NCBI RefSeq assembly: GCF_004010195.1
Contig: NC_057717.1
Coordinates: 102,855,676-102,919,675, forward strand
DNA: 64,000 nt
Source: Chiloscyllium plagiosum
Lineage: Eukaryota
Reading direction: 5' to 3'
The translations under genes and the position numbers were made by a program. The notes beneath the pieces were generated by a model, which was given only the letters and a program-made list of their open reading frames with translations, was not told the origin of the DNA and did no database searches. This document shows positions 2,440 through 61,654 of this stretch, piece after piece (position 1 is the stretch's first letter; each line of letters starts with the position of its first letter).

Positions 2440-3950
2440 CAAGCTCCCTCAGTAGGTACTTCCTCGGTGAATCACTCACGTAGTGATGCACTCCCTCGAT
2501 GCAACACTCCCTAGTAAGGCACACCCTCGATGCAACACTCCCTCAGTAAGGCACTCCCTCGTTGCAACACTCCCTCAGTGATGCACTCCCTTGGTGCAAC
2601 ACTCCCTTGCTGTGACACTCCCTCAATAAAGCATTCTCTTGGTGCGACATTCCCTCGGTGAGGCACTCCCTCAGTGCGACTCACTCTCAGTGCGACTCAC
2701 TCTCAGTGCGACTCACTCTCAGTGCGACTCACTCTCAGTGCGACACACTCTCAGTGCGACACACTCTCAGTGCGACATTCTTTTAATGCGACCCTCCCTC
2801 AGTGAGTCACTCACTCATTGCGACACTCCGTCAGTGCGACACTCTCTCAGTGAGTCATTCCTTCAGTGCAACACTCCCTTGGTGTGACATTCCCTCAGAG
2901 CAGTACTCTCTCAGTGACTCACTCTCTCAGTGCGACACTCCCTCAGTACAATACTCCCTCAGTGAGTCACTCTCTCAGTGCAGTAGACCCTCAGTGCGAT
3001 ACTCCCTCAGTGAGTCATTCCCTCAGTGCGACACTCCCTCAGTGAGTCACTCTCTCAGTGCAGTAGACTCTCAGTGCGACACTCCCTCAGTGAGTCAATC
3101 CCTCAGTGCTACACCCCCTCAGTGAGTCATTCCCTCAGTGAGTCATTCCCTCAGTGAGTCATTCCCTCAGTGAGCCATTCCCTCAGTGAGCCATTCCCTC
3201 AGTGAGCCATTCCCTCAGTGAGTCACTCTCTCAGTGAGTCACTCTCTGTGTGACACTCCCTCAGTACAATGCTCCCTCAGTACATACTCCCTCAGTACAT
3301 ACTCCCTCAGTACATACTCCCTCAGTACATACTCCCTCAGTACAATACTCCCTCAGTACAATACTCCCTCAGTGCTATACTCCCTCAGTGCTACACTCCC
3401 TCAGTGCTACACTCCCTCAGTGAGTCACTCCCTCAGTGAGTCACTCCCTCAGTGCGACACTCCCTCGGTGCGACTCTCCCTCGGTGCGACTCTCCCTCGG
3501 TGCGACTCTCCCTCGGCGCGGCACTCCCTCGGCGCAGGACTCCCTCGGTGCAGGACTCCCTCGGTGCAGGACTCCCTCGGTGCAGTATTCCCTCGGCGCG
3601 ACACTCCCTCGGCGCGACACTCCCTCGGCGCGACACTCCCTCGGCGCGACACTCCCTCGGTGCAGTACTCCCTCGGTGCAGTACTCCCTCGGTGCAGTAC
3701 TCCCTCGGTGCGACACTCTCTCGGTGAGTCACTCTCTCGGTGAGTCACTCCCTCGGTGCGACACTCCCGGTGCAGTACTCTCTCGGTGCAGTACTCTCTC
3801 GGTGCAGTACTCTCTCGGTGCAGTACTCTCTCGGTGCAGTACTCTGTCGGTGCAGTACTCTGTCGGTGCAGTACTCTGTCGGTGCAGTACTCTCTCGGTG
3901 CAGTACTCTCTCAGTGAGTCACTCCCTCGGTGCGACACTCTCGGTGCAGT
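2440..3950. repeat. Minisatellite, ~16-bp unit (CACTCCCTCAGTGCGA and variants), roughly 90 copies
   Basis: Periodicity read directly; blocks of homogenised variants; explains the overlapping ORFs at 2639-4104. Confidence 0.95.
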
Positions 3951-4483
3951 CCCTCTTTGTTTTGTGTTTCCTGACCTGTGGTCCCTGATTGGAATCAGTT
4001 TTGGCGTCACAGGTCCTGGACATACTGCAGTTTCTGGTTACTGGCTTTCAGTTCCATGTCTAGATTTTCTGCAGCCAGTTTATTCGGTAGGTTTGGTAAG
4101 TTAGCAAGCTGAGTATGAACAAGGTGAGTTGTCATGCGACCAAGCTGTTTAACAAGTAACAATCTCCTTTAATTGGCAACTTAGTGCTGCCTAACGAGAA
4201 CTTATCTTAACGTCTGGCGAAAGTATAAAAGAAGGAACCGACATTCCTGATGCGATGAGTCTCTCTGGAATTGATGTTTGATTCTGCCAAAAATCTTACC
4301 ATTGCCCACATTGCTCAGTGTCCTACAAGAAATGTCCCAAAATGTTTCAACAGTCATGAGCCATCTCTGAAGCATTATAGTGTGATGAGCAGGAGTGAGT
4401 GATATGCTGAGTGCAGAACCCCAGGTCATGTTTTCTGCCATTTTTAACTTGTTACACCTCAGAAAACCAGCTTGCAAACATCC

Positions 4484-5554: not shown

Positions 5555-6083
5555 GTATGACTATTTTATGTAAAAGAAAAGATGATAACAACCAAACTTT
5601 TACACCAAGTTTCACGAAACTACGATTGTGAAATTTACTAGAACGCATTTCCCACTGAATTTCCTCAGGGCATGGTCCATTACCACTGGGTCTGCCTCAC
5701 CGCGATTTGGACTTTTACAGTGAGCGTCGGAGGGCTATTTGGCTTTGGGGTGCATCACTGATAAATTAAGTCCGTCCTCACCTGAAGCTATCGGTTCCCA
5801 TTTTCCAGTCGCAGCTGGAAGAGGAAACATGAGTGTCTAATCCCTGGCGTACAGAGGGTTCCTGGTTTAGGAGCACAGACCAATACAGGGGTCTCAATTT
5901 AAATCTTGGACATTCGAGAGATGGTGATGTTGTCATGGTTGGTAGTGTTTGAGCTACTGTGCCTGTTCACTTCAGGCCACTCCCATCCTTGTGTCTCTCT
6001 CTCTCTCTCTCTCTCCTTTTCTTCTTTTCTCTTCTCTTTCTTCATCTTCCTGACGTTATGGGGAGGTGGGAGAGTTGGCAGTG

Positions 6084-6612
6084 CCTGGAGCGGGGATTCC
6101 TGGCTGTGGTGGGCCTGGAGTGGGGATTCCTGGCTGTGGTAAGCCTGGAGTGGGGATTCCTGGCTGCGGTGGGCCTGGTGCGGAGAATCCTGGGTGCAGT
6201 GGGCCCGGAGTGGGGATTCCTGGCTGTGGTAAGCCTGAAGTGGGAATTCCTGGCTGCGGTGGGCCTGGTGCAGAGAATCCTGGCTGCGGTGGGCCTGGAG
6301 TGGGGATTCCTGGCTGCGGTGGGCCTGGAGTGGAGAATCCTGGGTGCAGTGGGCCCGGAGTGGGGATTCCTGGCTGCGGTGGGCCTGGCGTGGAGAATCT
6401 TGGGCGTGGTGGGCCCGGAGTGGGGATTCCTGGCTGTGGTAAGCCTGGAGTGCGGATTCCTGGTTGTAGTGGGCCTGGTGTGGAGAATCCTGGGTGCAGT
6501 GGGCCTGGAGTGGGGCTTCCTGGCTGCGGTGGGCCTGGTGCGGAGAATCCTGGGCGCGGTGGGCCCGGAGTGGGGATTCCTGGCTGTGGTAAGCTTGGAG
6601 CAATGATTCCTG
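6084..6612. repeat. G-rich minisatellite, 30-bp unit GGGCCTGGAGTGGGGATTCCTGGCTGCGGT, about 17 copies
   Basis: Exact 30-bp register with no indels. Confidence 0.97.
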
Positions 6613-6756
6613 GTGGTTGATGGCGAGAAAGCAGGGCATGAGGAGTGGGGTCTCCTGGGTCACTGTTGTCGGCGGAAAGGGGACTCCTTCAAGCCAACCT
6701 TTCTTGGAGACGTTGCAGAATCCCTGGAGCTGTGTCTGGGACACCAGTCAACAATG

Positions 6757-8800: not shown

Positions 8801-9225
8801 GAGTCTATTGACCCCCAACATTCCAAATGCGGCCCGACCAGAGCCTTAAACAGCCTCAGCAGTACATATCTGCTTTTCTCTTGAAATGAATGTTGACATT
8901 GTATATGGCTTCCGAACTGCCTAACGAAGGGCTTATGCCCGCAACGTCGATTCTCCTGCTCCTCGGTTGCTGCCTGACCTGCTGTGCTTTTCCAGCGCCA
9001 CACTCTCGACTCTGATCTCCAGCATCTGTAAGTCCTCACTTTCGCCTTCCTAGCTGCTACCTCAACCCATGTGTTAACCTTATAAAAACACAAGCTAGGA
9101 TCCCCCTCCAAAATACTTTGTGCTTCAGATTACTGAAGTCTTTCCCCATTTAGAAAATAGTCTATGCCTCTATTCTTCCCACCAAAGTGCATAACCTCAC
9201 ACTTCACATTGAATTCCAGCTGTCA
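8800..9225 (-). mobile_element. CR1 fragment interrupted by a Penelope-like family B end (~8920-9043, + strand)
   Basis: VLLRLFKALVGPHLEC motif; insert has a decayed hammerhead CTAACGA-A-GGGC ttat GCCC-GCAACGTC. Confidence 0.75.
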
Positions 9226-12313: not shown

Positions 12314-13178
12314 AGAGTCATAGAGATGTACAGCATGGAAACAGACCCTTCGGTCCAACCCGTCCATGCCGACCAGATACTCCAACCCAATCTAGTCCCA
12401 CCTGCCAGCACCCGGCCCATATCCCTCCAAATTCTTCCTATTCATATACCCATCTAAATGCCTCTTAAATGTTGCAATTGTACCAGCCTCCACCACATCC
12501 TCTGGCAGCTCATTCCATACACATATCACCTTCTGCATGAAAAAGTTGCCCCTTAGGTCTCTTTTATATCTTTCCCCTCTCACCCTAAACCTATGCCGTC
12601 TAGTTCTGGACTCCCCGACCCCAGGGAGAAGACTTTGCCTATTTATTCTATCCATGCCCCTCATAATTTTGTAAACCTCTATAAGGTCACCCCTCAGCCT
12701 CCGACGCTCCAGGGAAAACTGCCCCAGCCTGTTCAGCTGCTTCCTGTAGCTCAGATCCTCCAACCCTGGCAACATCCTTGTAAATCTTTTCTGAACCCCT
12801 TCAAGTTTTGCAACATCTTTCCGATAGGAAGGAGACCAGAATTGCATGCAATATTCCAACAGTGGCCTAACCAATGTCCTGTACAGCCGCAACATGACCT
12901 CCCAACTCCTGTAATCAAAACCCTGACCAATAAAGGAAAGCATACCAAACGCCTTCTTCACTACCCTATCTACCTGCGACTCCACTTTCAAGGAGCTATG
13001 AACTTGCACTCCAAGATCTCTTTGTTCAGCAACACTCCCTAGGACCCTACCATTTAGTGTATAAGTCCTGCGAAGATTTGCTTTCCCAAAATGCAGCACC
13101 TCACATTTATCTGAATTAAACTCCATCTGCCACTTCTCAGCCCATTGGCCCATCTGGTCTAAATCCTGTTGTAATCTG
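12314..13178 (-). mobile_element. Young CR1 (HER1-like) LINE 3' fragment nested in the older CR1
   Basis: Uninterrupted 253-aa RT C-terminal ORF 12392-13153 and agagtcatagag tail. Confidence 0.95.
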
Positions 13179-13179
13179 A

Positions 13180-13305
13180 TTGCTATAAATTCGGTGTCTT
13201 ACAATCTTATACTCCACAACCACCTGATGAAGGAGCAGTGTTCCGAAATCTAGTGCTTCCAGTTAAACCTGTTGGGCTATAACCTGGTGTTGTGTGATTT
13301 TTAAC
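13180..13305 (+). mobile_element. Penelope-like family A arm with hammerhead motif
   Basis: CTGATGA at 13224, stem GGAGC/GTTCC, GAAATCTA (one substitution versus GAAAGCTA). Confidence 0.8.
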
Positions 13306-14184
13306 TTTCCTTGAGATCCACCATCTCCCTGATTTTCCCAGTCCACCTGCATGCTGAAGTCCCTGTGTCTTTTGTAATGCTGCCTTCCTCCCATGTCTTT
13401 TCCATCCCCAGCTTTATTTTCTTCCCCGTACCCTGGCTACTGGTAGGAAGCCTGTACCCCACTCCTTTTAGGGTCTTTTTTTTCCTTTGAGGTTCCTCAA
13501 CCCTCACAGATTCTATGCTTTTCAACTTCAATTTTTGCTGTTGATTTAATATCATTTCTCTCTAACAAAGCAAATCTGTCACAACTGTCCATCTGCCTGT
13601 GCTTCCTGGATCCCCTGCCTGCCCTTCCCATCCTCTGCTTCTGAAGGCAGTAATTGTTAAAATGAGTGCGTGTGTTCCACACTGGACGCATGTAGATTCA
13701 ACCCTCCTGCCAATTTCAGGAGCATTGGCTGGAGATTTGCCAGTCTGGTGATGGGTCTACCCGTAGCTTCAGCCACCCACACAGCCGACTTGAACAGAAA
13801 TGCCTCTCTGTCTTGGTGACCCCAGAATGAACTGCCAAGGTTCTGCAGGGAGGCAGTGTCTGACTGTGGAGGGGGGTTCATCCAGCAGTCATAGCCATGG
13901 GGAAACAGTTCGAGATTCCAAATCAAACTTTCAGTGTCAGAATGAGAACCCCCCCCCCCCACAACCCCTCACCCAATCCGGCCCATTTCACTGTCAGGCT
14001 CCAGAGGGAGACAAGGAACATCAAGTAACCACTTCTGTGTGTGTGTGTCTATGTGTGTATCTCTCTCTCTTTATGTCTGCAAGTGTTTGTTTATGTGAGA
14101 GGGAGAGTGTGTGTGTCTGTATGTATGCATGTGTGAGTTGCTTGCCTTGAATTGTTTAACTCTCTGTTTGCTTCCATTGCTTAG

Positions 14185-20295: not shown

Positions 20296-20471
20296 ATCCT
20301 ACCATCTTCAGTGATGTGTGTGTGAATGACCGCAGTGCTTCCTGCTCCTGCAACTCCTTCAGAATGATATCAGTTTTTGTATTCAGCCTCTCCTCAGTCT
20401 CCTGACAAAATCTATCACTTCCCACTTCTCTGCATTCAATGTTGTCTGTCACATGTTTCTGTCCTGGCCAG

Positions 20472-20721
20472 GGTCCACCAGCTGAGATAATACAGCCGCT
20501 GCCGATATACAGGTCAAAGACAAGAAGGCATGTTGAGACTGAGCAAGCCGACAATGCCGGGGGGAGTCCCCTTGACTACACAGAAGGGATGGAGGAGGTC
20601 TTCGGCGCCCTATCGTCACTGAAAGATGAGGTGGAGCAGATGAGGCGTCCAGTGGGGACGCAGAGTAACCCTGGCCGAACTTGTAAGGAGCTCCAACTCT
20701 GTCATCCACACTTCAAGGACG
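20472..20721 (+). CDS. col5a3: Junction exon (250 bp): helix end, C-telopeptide, basic RSKTRR convertase site and start of C-propeptide ([12 protein letters not shown]...[18 protein letters not shown])
   Basis: ggccag / gtaagt, phase-1 end; COLFI domain N-terminal motifs. Confidence 0.96.
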
Positions 20722-20770
20722 GTAAGTTAACGCGGAGGGAAACTCTTCAATACATGAAGCTCTCTTTCTC

Positions 20771-21404
20771 TGTGACAATGCTGTGGCTTTAAGAGATTAC
20801 TTTGTCTTGGTTTTATTTTGAAGAGAGTTTGTAAGGCAGAGGTGATGAGCAGTCTACCAAAAGCAGTGAACATCTTGTGACATCTTGGAATTCTTTTTTA
20901 AAAGTTGGAATAATAGAAGCTGGGTGTGACCAGCTCTCACAGACCAGGATTTCTAAGGGTTTATTTTCTGTTTTTATGTTTAGGGCTTTAAACAGTTGCT
21001 GTTGTGGGCTTGAATAGGTGAAAGCTATTTGCCCTTTTTCATTTACAGCCAAAAGCTGGACTGTTGGATTACATTTGAGAAAAAATCTGTTTTTCTGAGT
21101 TTGCCTGTTTGCCAAGGGGTGTATTATGGGATGTTACTAGATTGGACCAGTTCATTAGTAATAGTTACTGTATCTATTATTCTGTTAAGTTTTCCAATAG
21201 ACTTAAGTTATTCTAAATTCCTCTTTCTTTGGTTATATTTTAATTACAGTGTTTACAGAAATTGTGCTTTATTTAATGTCAAGTAGTTTGATCAGTTACA
21301 TCACATGGGAACAGACACCTTACAGTTGCCTTAAAAATAAGAAAAGATTAGGGTCTAGGCTACCTTCCTAAAATATTTTGAGGTGATTTGGTTGGTCCAT
21401 AACA
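20771..21404 (+). mobile_element. Probable solo LTR
   Basis: TG...CA ends (TGTGAC...CCATAACA); colinear second copy at ~58290-58900; no clear target-site duplication. Confidence 0.55.
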
Positions 21405-21597: not shown

Positions 21598-22400
21598 AGA
21601 GTCATAGAGACATAGAGATGTACAGCATGGAAACAGATCCTTCGGTCCAACCCATCCATGCCAACCAGATATCCTAACCCAATCTAGTCCCACTTGCCAG
21701 CACCTGGCCCATATCCCTCCAAACCCTTCCTATTCATNNNNNNNNNNNNNNNNNNNNNNNNNNNNNNNNNNNNNNNNNNNNNNNNNNNNNNNNNNNNNNN
21801 NNNNNNNNNNNNNNNNNNNNNNNNNNNNNNNNNNNNNNNNNNNNNNNNNNNNNNNNNNNNNNNNNNNNNNNNNNNNNNNNAGACCAGAATTGCACGCAAT
21901 ATTCCAACAGTGGCCTAACCAATGTCCTGTACTGCCGCAACATGACGTCCCAATTTCTGTACTCAATACCCTGACCAATAAAAGAAAGCATACCAAATGC
22001 CGTCTTCACTATCTTATCTACCTGCGACTCCACTTTCAAGGAGCTATGAACCTGCACTCCAAGGTCTCTTTGTTCAGCAACACTCCCTAGGACCTTACCA
22101 TTAAGTGCATAAGTCCTGCTAAGATTTGCTTTCCCAAAACGCAGCACCTGGCATTTATCTGAATTAAACTCCATCTGCCACTTCTCAGCCCATTGGCCCA
22201 TCTGATCAAGATCCTGTTGTAATCTGAGGTAACCCTCTTCACTGTTCACTACACCTCCAATTTTGGTGTCATCTGCAAATTTACTAACTGTATCTCTTAT
22301 GCTCGCATCCAAATCATTTACATAAATGACGAAAGGTAGAGGACCCAGGACCAATCCTTGTGGCACTCCACTGGTCACAGGCCTCCAGACTGAAAAATTC
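21598..22400 (-). mobile_element. Young CR1 LINE fragment spanning the assembly gap
   Basis: VTSGVPQG.VLGP and FADDTK RT motifs in ORF 21734-22456. Confidence 0.95.
21738..21880. other. Assembly gap (143 N)
   Basis: Run of n. Confidence 1.
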
Positions 22401-23214
22401 TTACCTGATGGATGAAGGATTAAAGGCTTTGATGTTCTGTCTGTTCCCTTCAACAAGACTCTGCTTCTGTGTTACCATGTAGCTAAACCTGTTCCCTGTA
22501 AATCCCTCTCCGCCCTGTTTGGTGTTGTCTCCGATGCCTTTCCCGAAAGGTGTTGGCTGGCTTTGCTGGTGTCCAGCAACAGCCTCTGATGTTGTGGTCA
22601 TTGGGTTGAGCTGAGGAAGTGATGGTCAGTGGGTCATGTGGCATTCTTACAGCTGGCACGTAACTAATGTGGTTGGTCATTTAACCACATGGGTCATTTA
22701 ACCAACTGCTCGATCGATGAGCTGCAAAACAACCCATGGCTTCCAACAAATAAATCGATGCATTGTTCAGACCTACTATGCTGTACAAAGGTCTGGTGCC
22801 ATGAACTCATCAACCTGAAAAAAACTCTTCCAAGGCTGCATCCAATCAGCAATCGGCCCTTATTCACAAATGCATTGTCTTTGACTAGAACTCTGAGTCA
22901 GGTATTATTGGGGCTCCATATCCCTGATACTCACCCTTTTAATGTTAACCAGGCTCCCTGATTGGTCTAGATTAACAGCCCCAATCAGGGAACTCAGATT
23001 CTCTGAGGTGCAACTGACCGACCTTGTTACAATCAGTACAAAGCCATTACGCCATAGAAGGAGACCATTCTGCCCATTAGATGTGCACTGGCTCTTTCAG
23101 GAAGCAACCGTTCAACCACTTTGCTCTTTCTCCACACCCTCGATTTTTTTCCTCCAAATACTTCACCTCTTGGAAATGACCACGGACTCTGTCATCTCCA
23201 GGCAGCTCCTTCCC

Positions 23215-25149: not shown

Positions 25150-25290
25150 CTGATGTGGAGGTGCCGGTGTTGGACTGGGGTGTACAACATCAGATATCAG
25201 ATGATACCTGACGAAGGCGCAGCACTCTGAAAGCGCTGATTTCAAATGAATCTGTTGGACTATAACCTGGTGTTGTCTGACTTCTGACCA
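25150..25290. mobile_element. Decayed Penelope-like family A insertion
   Basis: Inverted tail plus CTGACGA...GAAAGC arm; ggtataa on both flanks. Confidence 0.65.
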
Positions 25291-25905
25291 GGTATAAATG
25301 CGACCAGCAGGGCATTACTCCCCACTCGCTTCCACCCACTCTCCTTCCCTCCCTCCTCATTCCAGTTTTGTTAGGGGTCCATGATGCCACTACACTCAAT
25401 TAAATGATGCCATGGTATCACACATAATCACAATCACCTCGCCTCTTAAATTCAACTCTTTTGTTCAAGTAATGAGATCAGGAGCAGAGTGTCCCTGGTG
25501 GAACCCGCACCTAGAACTGAAGAACAAGTTAGTGCTGAGTAAGTGCCCCTTCCCTTGCTTTGCTGATTGTATTTTATATTCATTCACGGGATATAGGCAT
25601 CACTGGCCAGGCCAGTCTTTATTACTTTTAATACATGTATTTCTTATTAGTTAAGAGATGGTGAAATCAAGTGGATCATATAGGAGTCACCTGTAGGCCA
25701 GACCGGGTAAAGATGTCAGTTTCCTTCCCTAAAGGAGATTAGTGAACCAGATGGGTTTCTCCAACAATCAATTCATGGTCACCATTAGACTGCTCATTCC
25801 AGATATTTATTGAATTCAAATTCCACCATCTGCCGTGTCAGGATTCGAACCCACGTCCCCAGGACATTACCAGGGGTTCAGGATTAATAGGCGAGCGATA
25901 ATGCC

Positions 25906-26015
25906 CGAAACGTCGATTTTCCAGCTCCTCGGATGCTGCCTGAACTGCTGTGCTTTTCCAGCACCACTCTAATCTAGAATCTGGTTTCCAGCATCTGCAG
26001 TCGTTGTTTTTACCT
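25906..26015 (+). mobile_element. 5'-truncated Penelope-like family B end inserted in SINE family 2
   Basis: 12-bp duplication AGCGATAATGCC at 25894-25905 and 26016-26027. Confidence 0.8.
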
Positions 26016-26764: not shown

Positions 26765-27910
26765 AGGCCATAAGATATAGGCCATTTGGCCCATTGATTC
26801 TGTTCTGCTATTCGATCATGGCTAATATGTTTCTCAAACCCATTCTCCTGCCTTCTCCCTGTAACCCTTTACCACCTTCCTAATGGCTAAGTGGGGGGAC
26901 CACGGTGGCTCAGTGGTTAGCACTGCTGCCTCACAGCACCAGGGTCCCAGCTTGAATTCCAGCCTCGGGCGACTGTCTGTGTGGAGTTTGTACATTCTCC
27001 CCATGTCTGCGTGGGTTTCCTCCAGGCGCTCCGGTTTCCTCCCACATTCCAAAGATGTGCAGGCTCGGTGAATTGGCCCAAGCTAAATTGCCCACAGTGT
27101 TAGCTGCATTAGCCAGAGGGAAATGGGTCTGGGTGGGTTGCTCTTCAGAGGATCAGTGTGGACTTGTTGGGTCGAAGGGCCTGTTTCCACTCTGTAGGGA
27201 ATCTAATCTAATCAAGAACCTATCTGCCTCAATCTTAACTACACAAAATCAGAAGTCACATGATGCCAGATTATAGTCCGACAGGTTTATTTCAAATCAT
27301 AAGCTTTTGGAGTGCTGCTCCTTCATCAGGTTCACTGAAAAAGGTGATTTCAAATACACCTTTTGGACAATAACCTGGTGTCATGTCACTTCCGATTTAT
27401 CCACCCCAATCCAACACCAGCATCTCCACATCTTAAAGACACTCAATGACTTGGCCTCCACAGCCCTCTGTGGCAATGAGTTCCACAGATTCCCCACCCT
27501 CTGGCTGAGGATATTCTACCCCATCTCAGTTCTAAACCTTCACCCTGAGGCTGTGCCCTTGGGTCCTGGTCTCTCCTACTGGTGGAAACATTTCTCTCCA
27601 CGTCCACTCTATCCAGGCCCCTCAGTATTGAGTAAGTTTCAATCAGATTCCCCCTCACCCTTCTGAACTCCATCAAGTACAGACCCAGAGTCATCAACTG
27701 CTCCCCATACGACAAGCCCTTCATCCCCAGGATCACTCTTGTAAACCTCCTCTGGACCCTCCCTCCAAGGCCAGCACATCCTTCCTTAGATACAGGGTCC
27801 AAAGCTGCTCACAATATTTCAAATGCAGAATGACCAGAGCCTCATACTACCTCAGCAGTACATCCCTGTTCTTTCATTCTAGCCCTTACTAAATGCTATC
27901 GTTGCATTTA
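26765..27910 (-). mobile_element. CR1 LINE 3' fragment containing an HE1 SINE (~26893-27212, +) and a decayed Penelope-like fold-back (~27240-27430)
   Basis: RVQRRFTR..LGMKGLSY...EFRR.RG.LIETY ORF remnant; SINE A/B boxes. Confidence 0.85.
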
Positions 27911-28097: not shown

Positions 28098-28584
28098 GTA
28101 AGTTGGCAAGGACATTATATATATATATAGTGCAACAAGATCAGAATGGATCTGTCGATGGAGCACCGCGCACAATCTAATACAAAACATGGTGTTTCCA
28201 CGCCGTCCTTATTCACTCACTCAGCTAGCTAATGGTATTCAGCATCCCATCTCATTGAATTGAATTTATTGTCACGTGTACCGAGGCACAGTGAAAAGCT
28301 TTGTCTTGCGAGCGATACAGTCAGATCACAGAGTTAAGTAGCATAGATAAATAAATAATAGGTAAACAGCAGCAAAAACAAAAACACAGGTATGGGTGAA
28401 TGTTGAGAGTTTGTGAGTCCATTCAGTATCCTAACAACAGTAGGGTAGAAACTGTTTCGAAACCGGCTGGTGCTTGTGTTCAGGCTTCTGTACCTTCTCC
28501 CCTATTACAACGGTTATGGAAAAACATTGCCAGGGTGGGATGGATCTTTTAATTCATTCTGATGTGCAGTGCTTGCTGCACAGT

Positions 28585-28950
28585 GTTAAAAATCACACAA
28601 CACCAGGTTATAGTCCAACAGGTTTAATTGGAAGCACTAGCTTTCTGAGTGCTGCTCCTTCACCAGGTGGTTGTGGAGTACACAATTGGCAGACACAGAA
28701 TTTATAGCAAAAGTTTACAGTGTGATGTAACTGAAATTATATATTGAAAAATTTTTCAATGTATAATTTCAGTTACATCACACTGCAAACTATAAATTCT
28801 GTGTCTTACAATTGTGCCCTGCACAACCACCTGATGAAGGAGCAGCGCTCCGAAAGCTAGTGCTTCCAAATAAACCTGTTGGACTATAACCTGGTGTTGT
28901 GTGATTTTTAACTTTGTACACCCCAGTCCAACACCGGCACCTCCACATCA
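28585..28950. mobile_element. Non-coding fold-back Penelope-like insertion (family A)
   Basis: Inverted arms 28585-28750 and 28751-28912, 38-nt tail, duplication TTGCTGCACAGT at 28573-28584 and 28951-28962. Confidence 0.88.
28828..28862 (+). ncRNA. Minimal type I hammerhead ribozyme (intact core)
   Basis: CAC-CTGATGA-A-GGAGC agc GCTCC-GAA-AGCT-A-GTG: stem I CAC/GTG, 5-bp stem II, palindromic stem III. Confidence 0.8.
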
Positions 28951-29094
28951 TTGCTGCACAGTAACTTTGATATTTTTTAAAGAACTGTTTTTAAAATTTA
29001 TGGCCCCAAAAATGAGGCCTTATTGGTCCATATGCTGTTACATTCTTTCCTACCATCCCTCTTCATTGCATCCTCTGCTCATACCCTTCCATTC

Positions 29095-30177: not shown

Positions 30178-30735
30178 GATGTTGGACTGGGGTGGACAAA
30201 GCTAAAGATCACACAACACCAGGTTGTAGTCCAACAGTTTAGAACATAGAACATAGAACATAGAAAAATACAGCGCAGTACAGGCCCTTTGGCCCCTAAT
30301 GTTGCGCCGATCCAAGCCCACCTAACCTACACTAGCCCACTATCCTCCATATGCCTATCCAATGCCCGTTTAAATGCCCATAAAGAGGGAGAGTCCACTA
30401 CTGCTACTGGCAGGGCATTCCATGAACTCACGACTCGCTGAGTAAAGAATCTACCCCTAACATCTGTCCTATACCTACCCTCCTTAATTTAAAGCTATTC
30501 CCCCTCATAATAGCTGACTCCATACGTGGAAAAAGATTCTCATGGTCAACCCTATCTAAACCCCTAATCATCTTGTACACCTCTATCAAGTCTCCAATGA
30601 AAACAGCACTGCTCCATCATCCGGTGGTTGTGGGGCAGGATTCTGACCTGATGAAGGAGCGGCGCTCCGAAAGCTAGTGCTTCCAAATAACCCTGTTGGA
30701 CTACAACCTGGTGTTGTGTGATTTTTAACTTTGTC
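30178..30735. mobile_element. Penelope-like family A fold-back interrupted by a CR1 3' end (~30241-30595, minus strand, (ATAGAAC)n tail)
   Basis: Left arm broken at 30240; right arm 30646-30730 intact. Confidence 0.8.
30646..30679 (+). ncRNA. Minimal hammerhead ribozyme (intact core)
   Basis: CTGATGA-A-GGAGC ggc GCTCC-GAA-AGCT-A-GTG; stem I is only 2 bp here. Confidence 0.72.
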
Positions 30736-31160
30736 CCTAGAGTAGAATGTCAAGGCACAGTGATGGGACCCTGTAAAAGGAAGCCGGGACCTCCTCTAGT
30801 CTTTGTATCAAACTTCCCCCTCTTTGTGGTGATGCCAACAGCCAATGGCAAAGATTTCAACCTCAAACAAAACCAGAAATTACTGGAATAGCTCAACAGG
30901 TCTGGCAGCATCTGTGGAGAGATATCAGCGTTAGCATTTCCGGGCGAATGACCTTTCTTCAGAAGGTTTCAACCTCTCCCTTTCTGAAGCACTTCCTATT
31001 GCAGTTACCAATCGGAACTGATGTAGTTTGTCCTGTTTATTGTCCATCTCTGCATGTGACCCACTCAGTGACTATCCCCAGTGTGTCTGCACTGGGGCTG
31101 ACTAATTGTCATACTGTCTCTGACAGCTCCTGTCATGTCCACACTCTCTGACTTTTCCAG

Positions 31161-31229: not shown

Positions 31230-32392
31230 GTAAGAGTTCCTGAGGCGAGACTGTGTCTTTAATTCGCGGTATTAACAATATCTCGCATGAATCATAAGAG
31301 AGTTAACACATTAGAATGTGTGAGAGAGAGCGAGAGTCTCATCATAAGTCTCACAGAAGGTCAAATAAATATGTAGCTGAGTATAGTGCTCCTCACAGAA
31401 AGGAATACAAGCAAGAGTAGTCCAGACGAGGAGTAGATGGTAGTGCAATGGTATTCCGAAGCTAATGCTCCAGGGATGTGGGTACAATTTGCATGGCAAC
31501 TGGTTGAATTAAAATGTAATTCATAAATCAGGAATCTAGAAGCTAATCTCTGTGACGGTGACCATTTAAATCATTGTCGATTGTTGTAAAAGCCTATCTG
31601 ATTTGCAGCTGGTCTCTATGTGACTCTAGAACACAACATTCACCAAGGCTCCTCAGACAGCACTTTCCAGCCATGGCCATTATCATCTGGAAGGACAAGG
31701 GCAGCAGACACATGGGAGCACCATCCCCCTGCAAGTCCCCCTCCAGGTCATTCACCATCCTGACTTGGAAATATATTGTTGTTTCCTTCAGTATCACTGG
31801 GTCAGAATTGTAGAATTCCCTCCCGAAAAGCACTATGTGGGTTTGTCCATAGCTCAAGGACTGCTGCGGTTCAGGAAGGCAGCTTACCACCGCCACCTCA
31901 CAATAGTTTCCAAATCCACCCTCTCAAAAAGTTACATGAGCCTACGTGACCAATAAGTGAACACCACACACTTGACCACTCTTGACCTTTGAGTTGCAAA
32001 ATGAAGTCAATCACAAACACACTTGCACATTCTCTACAATACGGCAATGTCCAAATTTCTGCTCTTAGTTTACAATAAAAATGTATTCCTTCCAACGTAC
32101 TGTAACAACTCAACCAATGAGTGTGATTCATTGGCATCACAGACACAGACCATTTAGCCTGCCTGGTCTGTGCTGGTATTTATTCTGTACACCGGCTTCC
32201 TTCTGCCTTACTCCATTTCATCCCTCCGGCAGCAGTAACCATTCCTCATGTGCCCATTTAGCCTCTCCCTTAACCATTCACAGAACGACCCCATTCCAAA
32301 CCAAGGCAATGTTGATGTAACCTCACCCTGTTGGAGTTGGTGTAGGAATTTCCCTACGCTCCTGTATCAGTGTGTGTCTTTTCTCTCCTCAG

Positions 32393-32626
32393 CTCATGTA
32401 CACTGACTCCGATGGAAATCCAGTCCACGTGGTCCAGATGACCTTCCTGCGGCTTCTGAGTGCCATAGCCCGGCAGAGGTTCATCTACAATTGCCAGCAG
32501 TCCATAGGCTGGTATGACGCTGCTGCAAAGAGCTACGAGAGAGCAGTGCGCTTCCGAGGGGCTAATGACGAGGAGCTGTCACAGTCCAAGACCCCGTATA
32601 TCAATGCCATCTATGACGGCTGCAAA
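32393..32626 (+). CDS. col5a3: C-propeptide exon (234 bp): [23 protein letters not shown]...IYDGCK
   Basis: cctcag / gtaagc; [17 protein letters not shown] and DGC motifs. Confidence 0.97.
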
Positions 32627-32804
32627 GTAAGCAACAATTCTTCTGACAAGTGGGGTCAAACTGCTGGGGCTAAACAGTTCAGTGCTTAGCCTGTGCTGTT
32701 GGGATAAAGTCGGCAGACGCTCCCTGGCAGTACTGGGGAGGAGCTGCACTGTTGCATGCAGCGTTGTTCAGCTGAGATGATTGACCTAACTGTTCTCTTG
32801 CGAA

Positions 32805-33790
32805 GAACGATACAGCACAGGACCAGGCCCTTCAGCTGTGCCAACACATCACGCCTTCGTAAACTAAAAGCTTGTTGCCTACATACAGTCCATCTACCCA
32901 GGAGCAGCAAGGTGGCTTAGTGGTTAGCTCTGCTGCCTCACAGCACCGGGGACCTGGGTTCGATTCCAGCCTCGGGTAGCTGTCCTGTGTGGAGTTTGCA
33001 CGTTCTCCCCGTGTCTGTGTGGGTTTCCTCCGGGTGCTCTGGTTTCCTCCCACAGTCCAAAGATGTGCAGGACAGGTGGATTGGCCATGTTAAATTGCAA
33101 AAGTGAGGACTGGAGATCAGAGTCTAGATTAGAGTGGCGCTGGAAAAGTACAGCAGGTCAAGCAGCATCCGAGGAGCAGGAAAATCGACGTTTCGGGCAA
33201 AAGCCCTTCATCAGGAATAGAGGCAGAAAGCCTCCAGGGTAGAGAGATAAATGGGAGGGTGGGGCTGGGGAGAAGGTAGCAAAGAGTACAATAGGTAAAT
33301 GGGGGTGGGGATGGAGGTGATAGGTCAGAGGGAAGGGAAGAGCGGATAGGTGGGAAGGGAGATTGGCAGGTAGAACAGGTCATGAGGACAGTGCTGAGCT
33401 GGAAGGTTAAATTGTCCATAGTGTTAGGTGCAGTAGTTAGAGGGAAATGGGTCTGGGTGGGTTACTCTTCAGATGGTTGGTGTGGGCTTGTTGGGCTGAA
33501 TGGACTGTTTCCATTCTGTAGACATGGTCTGTTTCCATACTGTAAGTAATCTAATCTAATCAAAAAACCTCTTCCCTGTATATTTGTCAAGATGCCTCTT
33601 AAATGTTGCTATTGTATCTGTCTCTAGCATCTCCTCTCGTAGCGCTTTCCAGGCACTTACCACCCTCTGTGTAAAGCAAACCTACATCTCACATCACCCT
33701 TAAACTTACCCGCTTTTTACCTTAAACTTCTGTCCCCTCACAATTGACATTTCTATCCTGGGAAAAGAGACTATCCATTCTATCCATCTC
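32805..33790. mobile_element. Nested cluster: CR1 3' end (-) containing HE1 SINE (32901-33561, +) containing Penelope-like family B (33098-33405, -)
   Basis: SINE resumes in register after the 9-bp duplication GTTAAATTG (33089-33097, 33406-33414). Confidence 0.85.
33183..33218 (-). ncRNA. Minimal hammerhead ribozyme, family B (intact core)
   Basis: Minus strand ATTC-CTGATGA-A-GGGC tttt GCCC-GAA-ACGT-C-GATT. Confidence 0.8.
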
Positions 33791-37455: not shown

Positions 37456-39459
37456 TCTACAAAATGGCTACTCAACCCCAACCTGTACTCTGTTCCTATT
37501 GACATACCTGAGGGAAGTCAGAAGGTGGTTGACGTGGGAATTGAGAGAATCAGATCAGAACCCTTGGCGATTTGAAGGTGTGGGCTTTTGGAGGGATTCA
37601 AGACATGGGCAAGTTTTTTGATGATGCCTGATGAATGATTGGCAGTTTCCCTTGAGGTTTCTAGGGTGGGGTGGGGGTGGGGGTCCATGGGGGGTGGGGG
37701 GGTGGGGGAAGTGGAGAACAGTCATGGAAACCTTCTTTTGCCTCTAACCTGACATGACAGTGTTGGATACCCCGTCTGGTTCTTCACCTTCATGATCACG
37801 GCAACAATAAAAAAATCAGTGTGTAGCCTATTAATAGAGCAAAACGTCGATGGCCTTTTCAAAAGGGCAAACGTCACTTTTCCAATAAGTGTAGCATCTT
37901 GTCGCTCACTATCAGAAGAATCAGAAATTTACAAATCTAATATATATTGAGGGAAAAATAAAATGGGGTAAATCGATTTATACAGAATTGCTACAGACCC
38001 GTTTCAATTTTGGGGAAAAACCATGGGTCAACTCATACCAATTCTCCTTTGACCCTTGATCCAATTCCTCCTGCTTTTACTGTGATAGAAATGATTCTTC
38101 TCAAACCAAGTTTTCAAATGGTGCTAATCTCAAAATGCCAAAACTGTATTAAACTGTGTTGCTTGACTTTTTTTTTTGTTACAAAAAAGTAATTTATGGA
38201 GTTGTTATTTTTAGATGCTTCTTGATTGAGTGTTGGCATAATTTATTTCAGGTTAAGATGCCTTTGTGTATATAAATATTTTTTTTAAAACAAGAGGAAA
38301 GCATTTGGATTAGACCTATTAAGTCTTGGGCAGGGGCTAGAAATTCGCATTCACTTTAAGGGTCAGTAGTCTCAAGCTCCCAAAGGTATTGACCATTCGA
38401 AAGCCTTTTTAATAGTCCTTGTGGACAACATATTCTGGGGCTGTCTCTGAAAAGAGTTTCCTTAATTAACATCACTGCTAGCTGGGTTACTGAGGTAGGC
38501 TGATCCCATGTCAGATCACTCTGTGATTGGCTGTCCTCCCAGTAGACTCAGTCTGCCACAGCTGAGGGAGAGGAAACTGACCTGGTTTACCCTGTCCTAA
38601 GGGAAGCCCCAGTGATTTCCACTGGCATGAGTCCTCCAAGGTGGGAATTGGGAGAGTACTAAAGCCTTGGGCCTCATTCGCCCTATCCAACACTTCGCCA
38701 TCTTGGTTTGCAAATGGAGTGCGGCCATCTTGTGCCAGAGAACATTTGCTGTCTTGAAGGGATTGACTGGGGTTCTTGCCACATGGCGGATCCAAAGATC
38801 CTGTCATCACTTCGGTCTTAAAAGAAAACGATGAACTAAAAATTAGTTATAAAGTGGCTGCACCTGAACCTTTGGAGTTTCCCATCACCCACAGATCCAC
38901 CAGGATAACTGCAGAGTGTATGGCACCGGTTCAGGTCATTTGGCCCAATCTGTCCATGACGACGTATATATTACACCTGCCCCTCTCCTGCCATCCTTCC
39001 CCACCCAAATACTCTGTGTAATAAGAACACAATCTTCTCTTTTCTCCCCCTCATCCGTGATGGCACTCTTGCAGATGTATCAGTACTACTCAGTCCAAGC
39101 CACTCCCCGTGATAGTGAATTCCACTTTTTCACCACTCAACAGCAATATTATATCACAGAAGGCGCTCCTTCACTGCCTGCACTGCTTCTATTACCTGGT
39201 GCCAATTGTCCCCATATTCGTGCTTGCCATCTCCATCCAATGCCACTCTTAAATGCCTCAGTTGAACGTGCCTCCACGGCATTTCCAGGTGGTGCATTCC
39301 AAACCCTCTCAACTCACTGTCTGAAACGATATTTTTCTCTCTCAGATGGCCCTTACTTCATTTGCAGCTCACATTAAAATTGCACAGTCACTTTCTGGGT
39401 GAAAAGGCTTTCTGCAGAATTCCCCATTGAATGTCTTGGTGACTATGTTACCTTGACAA

Positions 39460-40303
39460 AGGTAAAAATCACACAATGCCAGGTTATAGTCCAACAGGTT
39501 TATTTGGAATCACTTGCTTTCAGAGCTCTGCTTCTTCATCAGGCGGTTGTGGAGCAGAATCATAAGACACATAATTTATAGCAACAGGATTGTAGTGTCA
39601 TGGAATGTAATATTAAATAAATTTAGCTTAAGTCTTTCATTTTTTAGATGACCATGTTAGTTTCAATCCCTTCAAACATAACTTCAAAAAAGTTCTGGGA
39701 TTTATGTTCTCAAGATAGCTTTAACAATAGATGCCATCTCACTCCAGATGAAGGTGTGAAGTTACAGTCTGTCTGTGTCCCAATGTCAGGTCCTGATTCT
39801 AATTCTTAAGTGGGAGTTACAGAATCTTATATGGATTTATGCAGTTTTTGAGCAGAAGAAAATGTAATTCTGCAAGTACAAATTCACCCCCCAAGTTTAT
39901 ATGTGTGTGTGTGTGTGTGCAGGGTAGACCAAGTGAGTGTGTGCATGTGGGTGTGTGTGTGTGCAGGGGAGACCAAGTGAGTGTGTGCATGTGGGTGTGA
40001 GCGTGAGCGTGAGCATATGAGAGAGAGCTTGTGTATGAGAGAGGGTCTGTGTGTGTGTGTATGCACACGCTTGAGTGTATGTGTGAGAGAGTGTGGTGTA
40101 GTGAGGCAATTTGTTGAATATTACATTCCATGACACTGCAATCCTGTTGCTTTCAATTCTGTGTCTTATAATTCTGCTCCACAACCACCTGATAAAGGAG
40201 CAGCGCTCTGAAAGCTAGTGTGCTTCCAAATAAACCTGTTTGACTATAACCTGGCGTTGTGTGATTTTTAACTTTGTACACCACCGGCACCACCAAACCA
40301 TGA
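39460..40303. mobile_element. Longer Penelope-like family A insertion with inverted ends and internal (TG)-rich tract
   Basis: Duplication TTACCTTGACAA at 39448-39459 and 40304-40315; both hammerhead copies carry substitutions. Confidence 0.85.
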
Positions 40304-40807
40304 TTACCTTGACAACCTCTGGCTCATGATCTTTCTCACAAAGTGGAAAGATTCTCTCTGTTAATGGTATCTGAAAACCATTGTCACATTCTTTCCTTTA
40401 GATATAAGTTGGGGTGCGGTGAGGGGGGAGTCTGGGATTGGGTAAGGGGAACCCAGAGTTATATACAGTTGGCACTGGGCCTGACTATCTTTGACCTGAC
40501 TAACCTCTACCCTCCCCGAGTTCCAGCTCAACCACACCTGTATCCTATCCCACTACCTGTCCCCATTGACTCAAGTTGGTTCCAAATTCACACCCCCATC
40601 CGCCCAACAGCCTCAAAATTGAATATTCCATGTTGCAATCCCATGGCGACACCCCATCCAATCAGAATCTGGTCTGCCTGCCCTGGGGATTAAGATTGAC
40701 AGTTAACTGCTCTTGCTGTATTTCCCTGTCAATGATGGCCCAACCATTAAGCACCCACTTCTCACGCTCGCCCTCCCCTACAGATTCATTCCTTACCTCT
40801 GCGGTTT

Positions 40808-43901: not shown

Positions 43902-44401
43902 CATATAATTTGTGAACCAGCCTCTCTACCTTGAAAACTTCAGGCTTTATTTCCGCCATGTTAGTGAACAGCTGAGTTAGTGAAGGTCTCGATTTTCAGT
44001 CCTTGTTTTCCAAATTCCTTTATGCTTTGCCCGTCTCTGTCCCTTGTGACCACCTCCAGTTGGACAACACACTGAAATCTGGCTGCCGTCTCAATCTTGG
44101 TATCTTGTTGCCCCAACAAGGGCTGGCTCCCAATTTCCATCGCTTCAGAAATGGTGGCTAGATATCGAGGTCCCACACTCTGGAATTTCCTCCCCAACTC
44201 CTCCCTTTAAAGCTTGCTGTATTTCCTTGAGTTTTTGATAACTCTCCTGATATCTCTGTATCCGGCTCAGAGTCCAATCTTGACTGATAGCAGTTCTGCA
44301 AGCACCTTGAGATGTTTCTGCGTGATAAAGGTGCTATACAAATGAAGATTGTTGCTGCCGTTACATCTGAAAGTGACCTCTTTTGAACTCTTGAATCTGG
44401 C

Positions 44402-44805
44402 TTCATCAACTGCCTCCGTTGCTCTCGATGTGGCCTCCTCAACGTTGGGGAGATAGAACGCTAACTCGCGGGGTGGTTCAGGGAGTATCTCTGGGACACA
44501 CGCACGAAACAACCCCACCGCCCTGTAGCCAACTCCTTCCACTCTCCCAAGGAGGTGCCAGTCCTGGGCCTCCTCCGTCGCCAAATCAAAGCCACCCACC
44601 AACTGGAGGAATAACGCCTCATCTTCCGCCTCGGGACCCTATAACCACACAACGTCAACATCGATTTCACCAGTTTCCAAATCTCCCCGCCCCCCCACCT
44701 CTTTCCGGATCCAATGCTGAGGCGCTTATGCCTGAAACCTCGACCCCGCTGCTCCTCGGATGCTGCCTGACCTGCTGTGCTTCTCCAGCGCCACACTGTT
44801 CGATT
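44402..44805 (+). pseudogene. Penelope-like element GIY-YIG endonuclease C-terminal remnant plus family B 3' end
   Basis: Frame from 44402 reads FINCLRCSRCGLLNVGEIER*L..WFREYL...PVA.....VLGL......LEE*RLIFRLGTL*PH.VNIDF, followed by a decayed hammerhead at ~44717-44742. Confidence 0.85.
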
Positions 44806-45301
44806 TTTGAACTCCTGCCGAGCCAAGAGGTTGGCCATTGAATCCCCATTATCCGTAAATGTAGTGCAAAGTGTAGCTGCTGTTTCCTAGACAATCCCTT
44901 CAGCAGGAACTGTTTCTCAAGTTTCACTGATCACGTTTAACCACAGCACTCTAGGGAGGGAGAGAGAGAGAGAAGCTGTCCCCTAGGAACCTAAGCTGCA
45001 AAATCTTGGCAGTTTAAGTGGGAGGTATACATGTCTCTACCCACAGGGGAATACAAATCCTTTCATGAGTTGATGTGTGTGAGTGTCAAGCTCTGTTAAG
45101 ATGATTCAGTTCAACTAGCCCTAGAGAGTCACACAGCTGCTGTTATCCTAGTGAAGGAATACCAATTTCACTTTAAGAGTGTTAGAGATTACAGTAGGTG
45201 GATTCGCCTCTGTCTTCACCTCTGTCTCCCTCATGCATTTTCACTTTTTCATGGCTCATTATGTCTGAGGAAGATCTTTCTTCGCTATGTCTATTGCTGT
45301 G

Positions 45302-45530
45302 TTAAGTTAAAAATCACACAACACCAGGTTACAGTCCAACAGGCTTATTTGGAAGCACTAGCTTTCGGAACGCTGCTCCTTCATCAGGTGGTTGTGGAGC
45401 AGAATTTTGACCTGATGAATGTGCAGCGCTCCAAAAGCTAGTGCTTCCAAATAAACCTGTTGGACTGTAACCTGGTGTTGTGTGATTTTTAACATTGTCC
45501 ACTCCAGTCCGACACCAGCTCCTCCGCATC
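45302..45530. mobile_element. 229-bp non-coding fold-back Penelope-like insertion (family A)
   Basis: Arms 45306-45389 and 45410-45493, 37-nt tail, 15-bp duplication ATGTCTATTGCTGTG at 45287-45301 and 45531-45545; intact hammerhead on the minus strand at 45356-45390. Confidence 0.9.
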
Positions 45531-45804
45531 ATGTCTATTGCTGTGGTTGCAGTGGAACCGCAGCCTCCAAGGGTATGAGGATACGCCAGCCTTAGAATAA
45601 GAGATGAGGCAAAGGCTCCATCATTGTTTTGCTGAGATGGTGGGGGTTGAGGGCAGCTGGAGTGAAGTGAGCCTATATTTTTCAGTTTTAAAGAATAAGG
45701 CTTGATTACAGTGTAATCCTAGGAATTGTTGGTGGGCTTTGCGGGGTAGATGGTGACAGGATAACTGGGCAGCCTAGAGCAAGGGGATTACGGGGCCGAC
45801 CATC

Positions 45805-59128: not shown

Positions 59129-59869
59129 CTGTGTGACCATTGGAGGAAGTTAAATTGATTAATAAATCTGGAATATGATAGTGTACACGGAACTATCACT
59201 GATTCTTGTAAAAGCCCATTGGTGCCCTGTTGAGAAGGAAGTCTAGCCTACATGTGATTCCATACCCACTCTTAACTCTATATCACAGAAGAGACCTTTT
59301 AGTCCACTGACAAAAATTACTCTGAATCTACACCAGGTCCTTGCACTTGGTCCACAGCCTTCGAAGTTATGACATTTCAGGAACTCAGAGCTCATCCAAG
59401 CACTTCTTAAAGTAGATTTGTGAGGTTTTCCATCTTAACTACCCTCCCACAGGGTAATCAGTAAGCAGACCTCATTGGCTGTGAAGCACTTTGACACGGT
59501 GTAAAACAGCGAAAGTCTTCGGAGTCGTGTGGGGCAAATCAGAAAGTGGAAAATGACAGGTACTCGGGACTTTGTACGTGGGATTCTAGGACAAACTCAA
59601 AAGCAGAGCTGTCCATTTTAGACTGCCTTGTATTAGATTGTAAGTGTTAATATCTGGGACCTCACACAATGATGATACAATGGAAGGCACGACTGAGAGA
59701 CTTGGAGAGAGATTGATGATAACTCAACAACAGAAAGATAGAAACATGGAAAGCTGTCTATAGACTTCCACATGCAACAAACTAATTGTTTGCACAAAGA
59801 ATGAGTAACTCTCTAAAGCTGGATCAACCAATAAATTATGTCAGTTAGCACTCAGAGAGTTGTTACAAT

Positions 59870-60093
59870 TAGCGAGTTTTGAGAAGATTTGTAGCTGAGG
59901 TTGTGGTTCTGGATGTAGGTTTGTTCGCTGAGCTGGAAGGTTCATTTTCAGATGTTTCATCACCATTTTAGGTAACACCTTCAGTGATCCTCCGGATGAA
60001 GGCTTTATTCGGAGGCTCGCTGATGATGTTACCCAGTATGGTGATGAAACATCTGAAAACGAACCTTCCAGCTCAGCAAGCAAACCTACATCC
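59870..60093. mobile_element. Fold-back Penelope-like insertion, family D
   Basis: Palindrome 59909-60095 centred on 60002, 39-nt tail on the left, duplication AGTTGTTACAAT at 59858-59869 and 60094-60105; hammerhead motif 60017-60056. Confidence 0.85.
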
Positions 60094-61654
60094 AGTTGTT
60101 ACAATGTGCATGAAACAAGGATGCAGTAATTTTCATAGATAGATAGATAATAGGAATCAGCCAATCTGTCCTTTGAGCCTGCTCCATCATTCAGTATGAT
60201 TATGGCTGATCATCCAACTCAATACTTTTTGATCCCTTTGGCCCAAAGAGCTATATTTAACTCCTTCTGAAAATATTCATTTTGTAACCTTCCACCAAAG
60301 AGCTTACACAGTTTACTCAATGTTTTGATCATATTATGTTCAATTATGTGAGTCTGGTTACTGACCCATGCTCACTGTGCTTGATTGGTTAAGTCTGGGT
60401 GTTGCTCAGAAAAAAGCAGACAGGCACCACAGAAAGAACTAGAAGTTAATTACAAGCATGAGTATTCAGTTTCAATAAAACCTGCAACCCATCAAGTCAC
60501 CATTGTCCTACCAGATAATAGGGTTGCTCTCTTATTAGAGAGACACACACACACAAACAAAACTGGTGGTGATTTAACCTGAGGGTCACAGCATCTCAGA
60601 TGAGGGGAGAGGTCTGTATGGAAACCTCAGCTGGTGTGGGGGTTGAACCCACACAATTGGCATCATATTACGTTGCAAGCCAACCATTTATGCCATCTGA
60701 GCTAAATCAACCCCCAACACAACAAAGTATGTGTCCAAGATTTAAAATATGCAATGCTGTAAGCTGGGCTAGTTCAACTGGGACAGTGGTGCTGACGGAC
60801 TCAGGTAAGAATCTTCTTTTGTAAAATCTGAGTCAGGAGGGAAAGGGATTATTTATCTTATTGGTATCTAGAATAATAGAATCAGGTCTATGATTAATTG
60901 TTCTTGTTGTATACTCTTTGCATATTTAACCAGGGCCCCAATTTAGAACCTGAGTTCTTCTGTTTTTAGATCCATTCAAATTGCTTTTCAAAGAGAGGGA
61001 TTACAAGGAACGTTCAGCACAGAAACAGACCATTTGGCCCAGTGATGGCAGTAATTATTCTCCACACGCACCTCCTCACATTGCTCATCACTTCATCCAA
61101 TCTGATACATTCTAAATGCTGGTGCACAGAGTAACGATTCTCAGTGATTGCCCCTGGGTCACGTCATCATTGACCGAGGTATGAAGTAATTACAGCAAAA
61201 TATGCTCAGCAGGGAAGCTGAGTATGTATAAAAGCAAAGTCAGAAACAAAAAATGAAATCTTCTCCAGATGAGGAAAAATGATTAAACCCTCACTCAATG
61301 TACACAGAACACTGAAAATTAAATCTTAAAATGCACAGCAGATCTGTAAAATATCAAAAATGCTTCAAACATTCATGAAGTACATTCTGAAGCAAGACCC
61401 TGGCTCTATTACATTTAGCATGCCCTCTGTGAGTGCCATCCCTTTCCTTACATGAGAGAGTCCTGTAGAGATATCACTAATTAAATTGAACAAATTACAG
61501 CTTGTCATGCACTCAGCCACTGTAGAAATCTTGCTCTATTGGGTCTAATTGGATTGAGGCTCATTTTATCTGAGCACCGATTACAACCTCAGAGTATGGC
61601 ACTCCAGCATCAACTGTGGGAATTCTCCGTGGCTGAAGGTTATATTGTCGCTCA

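Follow-up and report, generated by a model that had tools for sequence, protein, structure and literature searches.

The window, by which we mean the whole 64-kb stretch of Chiloscyllium plagiosum DNA analyzed here and to which all positions refer, contains fibrillar collagen exons on the plus strand between 1867 and 32686, with COLFI domains at 20406–20789 and 32321–32686, and is rich in LINE- and SINE-like repeats. LINE-like ORF fragments, presumably of CR1 type, are found at 12392–13198 and 21734–22471, the first of which abuts the solo arm listed at 13170 in table 1, and minisatellite-like repeats with long open frames lie at 3222–4104 and 5899–6747. A profile search of the window recovers a family of fold-back inserts at seven loci, six of which have inverted arms. 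Four of these (at 45302, 28585, 39460, and 30178) had been described in the earlier note as sharing one design of two inverted arms, and both the coordinates and the design are borne out, with the outer arm ends falling on the same base; the loci at 13170–13308, 25151–25290, and 27239–27432 were absent from that description. At least the copies between 25151 and 30736 sit in introns of the collagen gene.

Table 1. Parts of the 45302 insert and the other members of the fold-back family in the window (TSD, target-site duplication).
Feature	Positions	Strand	Details
Left TSD copy of 45302 insert	45287..45301	+	15 bp; identical to 45531–45545
Extra bases before long arm	45302–45305		4 bases
Long arm of 45302 copy	45306..45406	-	Tail-less inverted pseudo-LTR end; descriptor-passing minimal hammerhead (core start 45387, minus strand)
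Filler at fold-back center	45407..45409	.	3 nt; CTG in 30178 copy
Short arm of 45302 copy	45410..45493	+	Pseudo-LTR end; starts 2 nt before hammerhead core
Tail of 45302 copy	45494..45530	+	37 nt
Right TSD copy of 45302 insert	45531..45545	+	15 bp
Fold-back (28585 copy)	28573..28962	.	12-bp TSDs; arms 28585–28751 (-) and 28752–28912 (+); 38-nt tail 28913–28950
Fold-back (30178 copy)	30178..30736	.	23-nt tail and arm on left (-); center 30643–30645; right arm 30646–30729 with descriptor-passing hammerhead
Fold-back (39460 copy)	39448..40315	.	12-bp TSDs; about 170 nt mirrored; 31-nt tail 40273–40303
Solo arm	13170..13308	+	Tail-less; descriptor-passing hammerhead at 13224; at end of LINE-like fragment
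Diverged copy	25151..25290	.	Left, inverted tail alone; right, arm; 7-bp flanking repeat
Diverged fold-back	27239..27432	.	Tail on right; 7-bp flanking repeat; within another repeat

The TSDs of 15, 12, and 12 bp that had been claimed for three of the inserts are exact (45287–45301/45531–45545, 28573–28584/28951–28962, and 39448–39459/40304–40315). When shared words were scored between random nearby windows of 35/40 nt in up to 20,000 draws, words of at least 15 occurred in 0.13% and words of at least 12 in 0.38% of draws. The 7-bp flanking repeats at 25151 and 27239 are weak taken alone, given that chance yields 7 bp in 7.7% of draws, and the 30178 copy has a possible decayed TSD in which 12 of 15 columns match, a value reached in 2% of random pairs. 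The tail is one-sided, as the earlier note stated, and the length of 30–39 nt given there fits three of the four named inserts (37, 38, and 31 nt) but not the 30178 copy (23 nt); the tails of 37 and 38 nt are intact and those of 31 and 23 nt have internal deletions. The arms of the 28585 copy meet at an A5/T5 palindrome, and the spacer of the 39460 copy, which includes a microsatellite, would correspond to the upstream part of its long arm. The left arm of the 30178 copy is interrupted at about 30241–30600 by an unrelated insertion of about 360 nt that has short tandem repeats at its start, is accompanied by a deletion of about 30 nt, lacks a TSD, and has no second match in the window.

The claim that every arm carries a hammerhead is overstated, although the minimal hammerhead motif itself is present: a strict descriptor of the minimal hammerhead is passed by three of the eight arms of the four named inserts (28831+, 30648+, and 45387-). 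The other five arms have changes in the core or stems; the short arm of the 45302 copy, with mutations in helix II and the GAAA box, has a degenerate hammerhead, and the insertion splits the left arm of the 30178 copy. Across the whole window the descriptor finds six matches, as compared with two in 20 shuffles, and the family loci with a match are those at 13224, 28831, 30648, and 45387. Where intact, the motif combines a helix I of 3 bp with an additional base in front of helix II and a minimal, palindromic helix III, which is the layout described, short helix I included, for the minimal hammerhead of metazoan Penelope-like elements (PLEs) (PMC4209133; Cervera and De la Peña 2014). That study reported pairs of minimal hammerheads on opposite strands, 100–700 bp apart, in Schistosoma mansoni; the portion of its text available to us does not name a shark family or analyze the TSDs, tails, or centers of hammerhead pairs. 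An Rfam scan returned no match at the gathering score, and its hairpin matches, which would correspond to a microRNA-precursor reading, were generic and below threshold. In the subfamily of the 45302 copy, bases immediately upstream of the hammerhead (45369–45406, minus strand) are able to form 7 bp with the 5′ strand of helix II, and the predicted fold of this segment is a non-ribozyme hairpin (-13.8 kcal/mol).

We propose that the inserts are, more likely than not by a fair margin, extremely 5′-truncated, non-propagating insertions of a very abundant endonuclease-positive (EN+) PLE, probably of the Neptune type. We favor this class because an inverted pseudo-LTR, a one-sided tail of 30–40 nt, a variable TSD, and a minimal hammerhead together constitute the published EN+ signature. 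PLE inserts have been described in which the pseudo-LTR is inverted, a 31-bp tail may be present, the TSDs measure 8–10 bp, and palindromes lie at the junction (PMC3846280; Arkhipova, Yushenova, and Rodriguez 2013), and an inverted truncated copy with a tail of 30–40 bp at either end has also been described (PMC8557442; Craig et al. 2021); both papers agree with the earlier statement that an inverted pseudo-LTR and a short tail extension are typical of Penelope elements. In the window we observe a hammerhead-bearing pseudo-LTR, an adjacent inverted 5′-truncated copy in six of the seven loci, a tail at one end, and TSDs of variable length, and the resemblance to the EN+ units, as far as these are described in the accessible text, extends to the junction palindrome. 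The shark units differ from those published in being 140–850 bp long, without an ORF, and extremely abundant. We regard the family as an apparently unreported shark family of a known kind, as the mirror-image-plus-tail pattern has already been described for PLEs. The literature that we searched, often in partial text and with repeat databases and most subscription papers outside its scope, describes neither this shark family nor a self-propagating fold-back derivative of a PLE.

The inverted arms, identical outer ends, and very high depth of the family are also what a MITE-like DNA transposon family mobilized by a DDE transposase would display. We give this reading almost no credence, as the TSDs are 15, 12, 12, and possibly 7 bp, the tail is on one side, solo arms occur, the centers vary, and a hammerhead is present; fixed short TSDs and symmetric termini were not found. 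The earlier preference for a target-primed Penelope origin over a MITE is thus upheld by the variable TSDs, the one-sided tail, the minimal hammerhead, and a shark gene model with a Penelope-type reverse transcriptase (RT) that is discussed below. The presence of minimal hammerheads raises a second alternative, that the units are retrozyme-like and spread as circular RNA after being freed by hammerhead cleavage, and the derivation of animal non-LTR retrozymes from PLE pseudo-LTRs (Li, Clavereau, and Pollet 2026, bioRxiv 10.64898/2026.07.22.740005) makes the comparison natural, since such retrozymes are likewise non-coding and hammerhead-bearing. However, retrozymes as described there are head-to-tail repeats or monomers, whereas the shark inserts are head-to-head fold-backs with a tail and a TSD, inverted rather than tandem; the predicted cut site is 53 nt upstream of the arm end and 90 nt upstream of the tail end, and each strand has only one sense hammerhead, which would be paired with its own antisense in the long duplex predicted for the unit RNA. 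Neither head-to-tail repeats nor unit ends at the hammerhead cut were observed, and we consider this origin very improbable.

The RT evidence comes from the related shark Chiloscyllium punctatum, one of whose proteins includes the repeat read in antisense (a 52-aa query matches at 83% identity over 58% of its length). In the C. punctatum gene model P0002 the antisense repeat is joined to an RT, and the end of the model is a sense reading of the same hammerhead core. With the RT region of P0002, 15 long proteins were found among 354 candidates, and 10 of the 15 have a precomputed GIY-YIG domain. The closest long relative, P0003, is 65% identical to the P0002 RT and has a GIY-YIG-like C-terminal region, on which Pfam does not call GIY-YIG; by eye, its linker reads CX4CxxC, within the CX2-5CxxC pattern found between RT and endonuclease in the Neptune clade. 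This linker points to the Neptune type, and the link from repeat to RT, made through one gene model, is suggestive and not stronger because that model may fuse separate insertions. The 64-kb window itself has no RT or endonuclease remnant of the family, pattern scans gave no loci in viral, metagenome, and prokaryote collections, and scanning with P0003 yielded 94 pattern matches, none of them a confirmed relative. A 66-aa antisense peptide across the 45302 center had no candidate of 36–116 aa; in the 50% library it had five matches, two of which cover one arm only and three of which look spurious.

The earlier note left open whether such inserts are repeated truncation products or copies of a short master element, and leaned toward the latter on the basis of the nearly identical spacer of the 45302 and 30178 copies. 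The evidence now leans the other way. Among the six fold-backs of the window there are five types of center, and nine of the 13 minor alleles that occur in at least two arms include both arms of one locus. The 45302 copy has an A>G of its own in both arms and the 30178 copy a T>C of its own in both arms, and neither variant is present at the other locus, which makes a single master for both unlikely. We note that arm-to-arm gene conversion could also give variants common to one locus. RNA editing was considered as a source of the arm variants and rejected, as the 30178 variant could not be placed on both arms under the proposed model; both variants are also present in the family at 2–10% each in public contigs, which likewise speaks against editing. 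A fold-back of a second, unrelated hammerhead family lies at 59858–60105, with an exact 12-bp TSD, a tail of about 40 nt on the left, 93-nt arms, and a descriptor-passing hammerhead at 60020, and the recurrence of the same design in an unrelated family favors repeated truncation over a short master. Taken together, these observations favor repeated truncation products.

Four of 24 listed public runs were compared with 45116–45715, with Logan contig depth taken as an indication of orders of magnitude and not as copy number, and bearing in mind that contigs can drop junctions and rare variants. The raw RNA run X22 gave 0 reads, which carries no weight for or against expression. In run X1 the depth is 12.8 in the flank, 3.1 million in the arm at 45370, and 236–381 at the 45302 center; the same center has a depth of 395–531 in X13 and 60–63 in X16. 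Depth in the arms thus exceeds that at the 45302 center by a factor of about 10^4, and the center reaches about 1% of the subfamily-specific depth at 45400 (29,152), although the center depth is not a strict upper bound, given that X1 is too deep for a full joint count and contigs lose junctions. The contigs contain 584 types of joint, with at most five contigs and a depth of 406 among the 15 listed, and eight of those 15 leave the long arm at 45387–45396, no more than 9 nt upstream of the core of the hammerhead. Arm ends cluster at 45492–45494, with 810 contigs at 45493 in X1 and 875 in X13, which indicates a fixed tail-less end. Since collapsed multi-copy joints persist at depths of 270–400, a center present in thousands of copies should be visible; a dominant master with the 45302 center is not seen in these contigs, with the caveat on junctions given above.

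The similarity of the 45302 and 30178 copies nevertheless requires explanation, as independent formation of their common center needs either a junction hot spot or selection among many windows. The two align without gaps over 128 nt through the center at 89.8% identity, with 13 mismatches spread over the length; the near identity noted earlier therefore holds, but the presumed spacer is mostly the longer arm. What is truly common to the two is the end point of the long arm, the 3-nt filler (TTG/CTG), and the start of the short arm 2 nt before the hammerhead core. Their centers face the same way and their tails lie on opposite sides (left in 30178, right in 45302), and they are the only two of the six fold-backs in the window to have a common center. 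The pair would also be explained by a junction hot spot that came to notice among many windows.

Another possibility, which we hold tentatively and at well below even odds, is that a minority lineage inherits the center through a fold-back RNA template, supplied perhaps by a mini-element but more probably by an autonomous PLE that has the junction at its 5′ end. Two cDNAs would start on the sense arm, and the strand crossing the center would anneal to the other, leaving the tail on the right (45302) or on the left (30178); a template of this kind, when copied from two start points, would thus yield an unchanged center with the tail on either side. The gapless alignment spanning the center, the common center orientation with opposite tail sides, and the upstream and tail subfamily letters common to the two copies all agree with such inheritance, as do three organism B contigs that differ at 45406–45407, away from contig ends. 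An autonomous copy with the junction at its 5′ end would also keep the downstream sequence that the RT of the anole element discussed below needs, as far as its published account is available. Against inheritance stand the different arm variants of the two copies and a center depth of no more than 20–40 single-copy equivalents. The unit RNA is moreover predicted to form a single long duplex (-141 and -152 kcal/mol), in which the hammerhead would be buried, and inserts that end at the tail would, by analogy with the anole enzyme, be without the downstream sequence that it needs. We regard as unlikely, and favor less than inheritance, an ectopic gene conversion or break repair that followed independent insertion and acted between the two neighboring palindromes, which lie 15 kb apart. 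The homology of roughly 90 bp that flanks the center on either side, the differing distal variants and tail sides, the deletion and TSD-less foreign insertion in the left arm of 30178, and the occurrence of a rare center twice within 64 kb, suggesting a local event, are all compatible with conversion, but the 13 mismatches are scattered over the 128 nt and there is no tract of lower divergence near the center.

Returning to repeated truncation, we posit that a cDNA would be primed from each of the two nicks on the same kind of RNA, one beginning at a far site and giving the tailed end and the other at a near site and giving the tail-less end. Both cDNAs would halt early, and a short palindrome or microhomology would serve to join them head to head; the offset between the nicks would produce the TSD of 7–15 bp, and the mirror half would be made anew at most insertions. 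This scheme has a parallel in vitro in PAc, a Poseidon element of Anolis carolinensis, for which the available text reports that both target strands are nicked and extended, that reverse transcription begins inside the RNA at two sites one tail length apart, and that the RT requires sequence downstream of the start sites (PMC11167929; Frangieh et al. 2024). Like PAc, the shark family has a pair of fixed 3′ ends downstream of the hammerhead, separated by the length of the tail, and priming on both strands would give inverted arms; unlike PAc, the RT tied to the shark repeat looks Neptune-like. PAc priming is reported as non-homologous to the target, whereas several shark inserts have short matches between target and template. 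In three of six tailed copies the bases past the tail (at 45531, 30177, and 40300) match the continuation of the element at six of seven positions, and in the other three at three to four of seven; at 45302 the match falls within the TSD. The continuation used is a loose-end consensus from run X13 with an agreement of 0.57, and it begins with an ATG that may be the start of an ORF. We take the matches past the tail as a hint of annealing-assisted priming.

The practical consequence of our assignment is that annotation should label the hairpins Penelope stubs and not MITEs, microRNA precursors, or coding exons; one shark gene model is already contaminated by the repeat read in antisense. Given their very high copy number, shark genomes are good data for how PLEs make inverted copies and tails. 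If the pair with a shared center and opposite tails reflects inheritance, it would be a direct genomic test of two-site priming and a genomic readout of the unsolved Penelope second-strand step, the lineage would be a hairpin-type non-autonomous retroelement, and short target–template matches at the two priming sites would show that annealing assists priming in vivo. The search for an empty site orthologous to 45302 that the earlier note called for yielded none; organism B carries the insertion, as one contig reaches from the left flank into the insert for 32 letters, with the right junction too thinly covered to bridge. Finally, the 3′ end of a third PLE-like family lies at 44393–44800, where a weak match to the C-terminus of P0010 (29%, E = 4e-4) is followed by a terminal repeat, and stubs related to this family are found at 8931–9004, 25895–25970, and 33131–33213.
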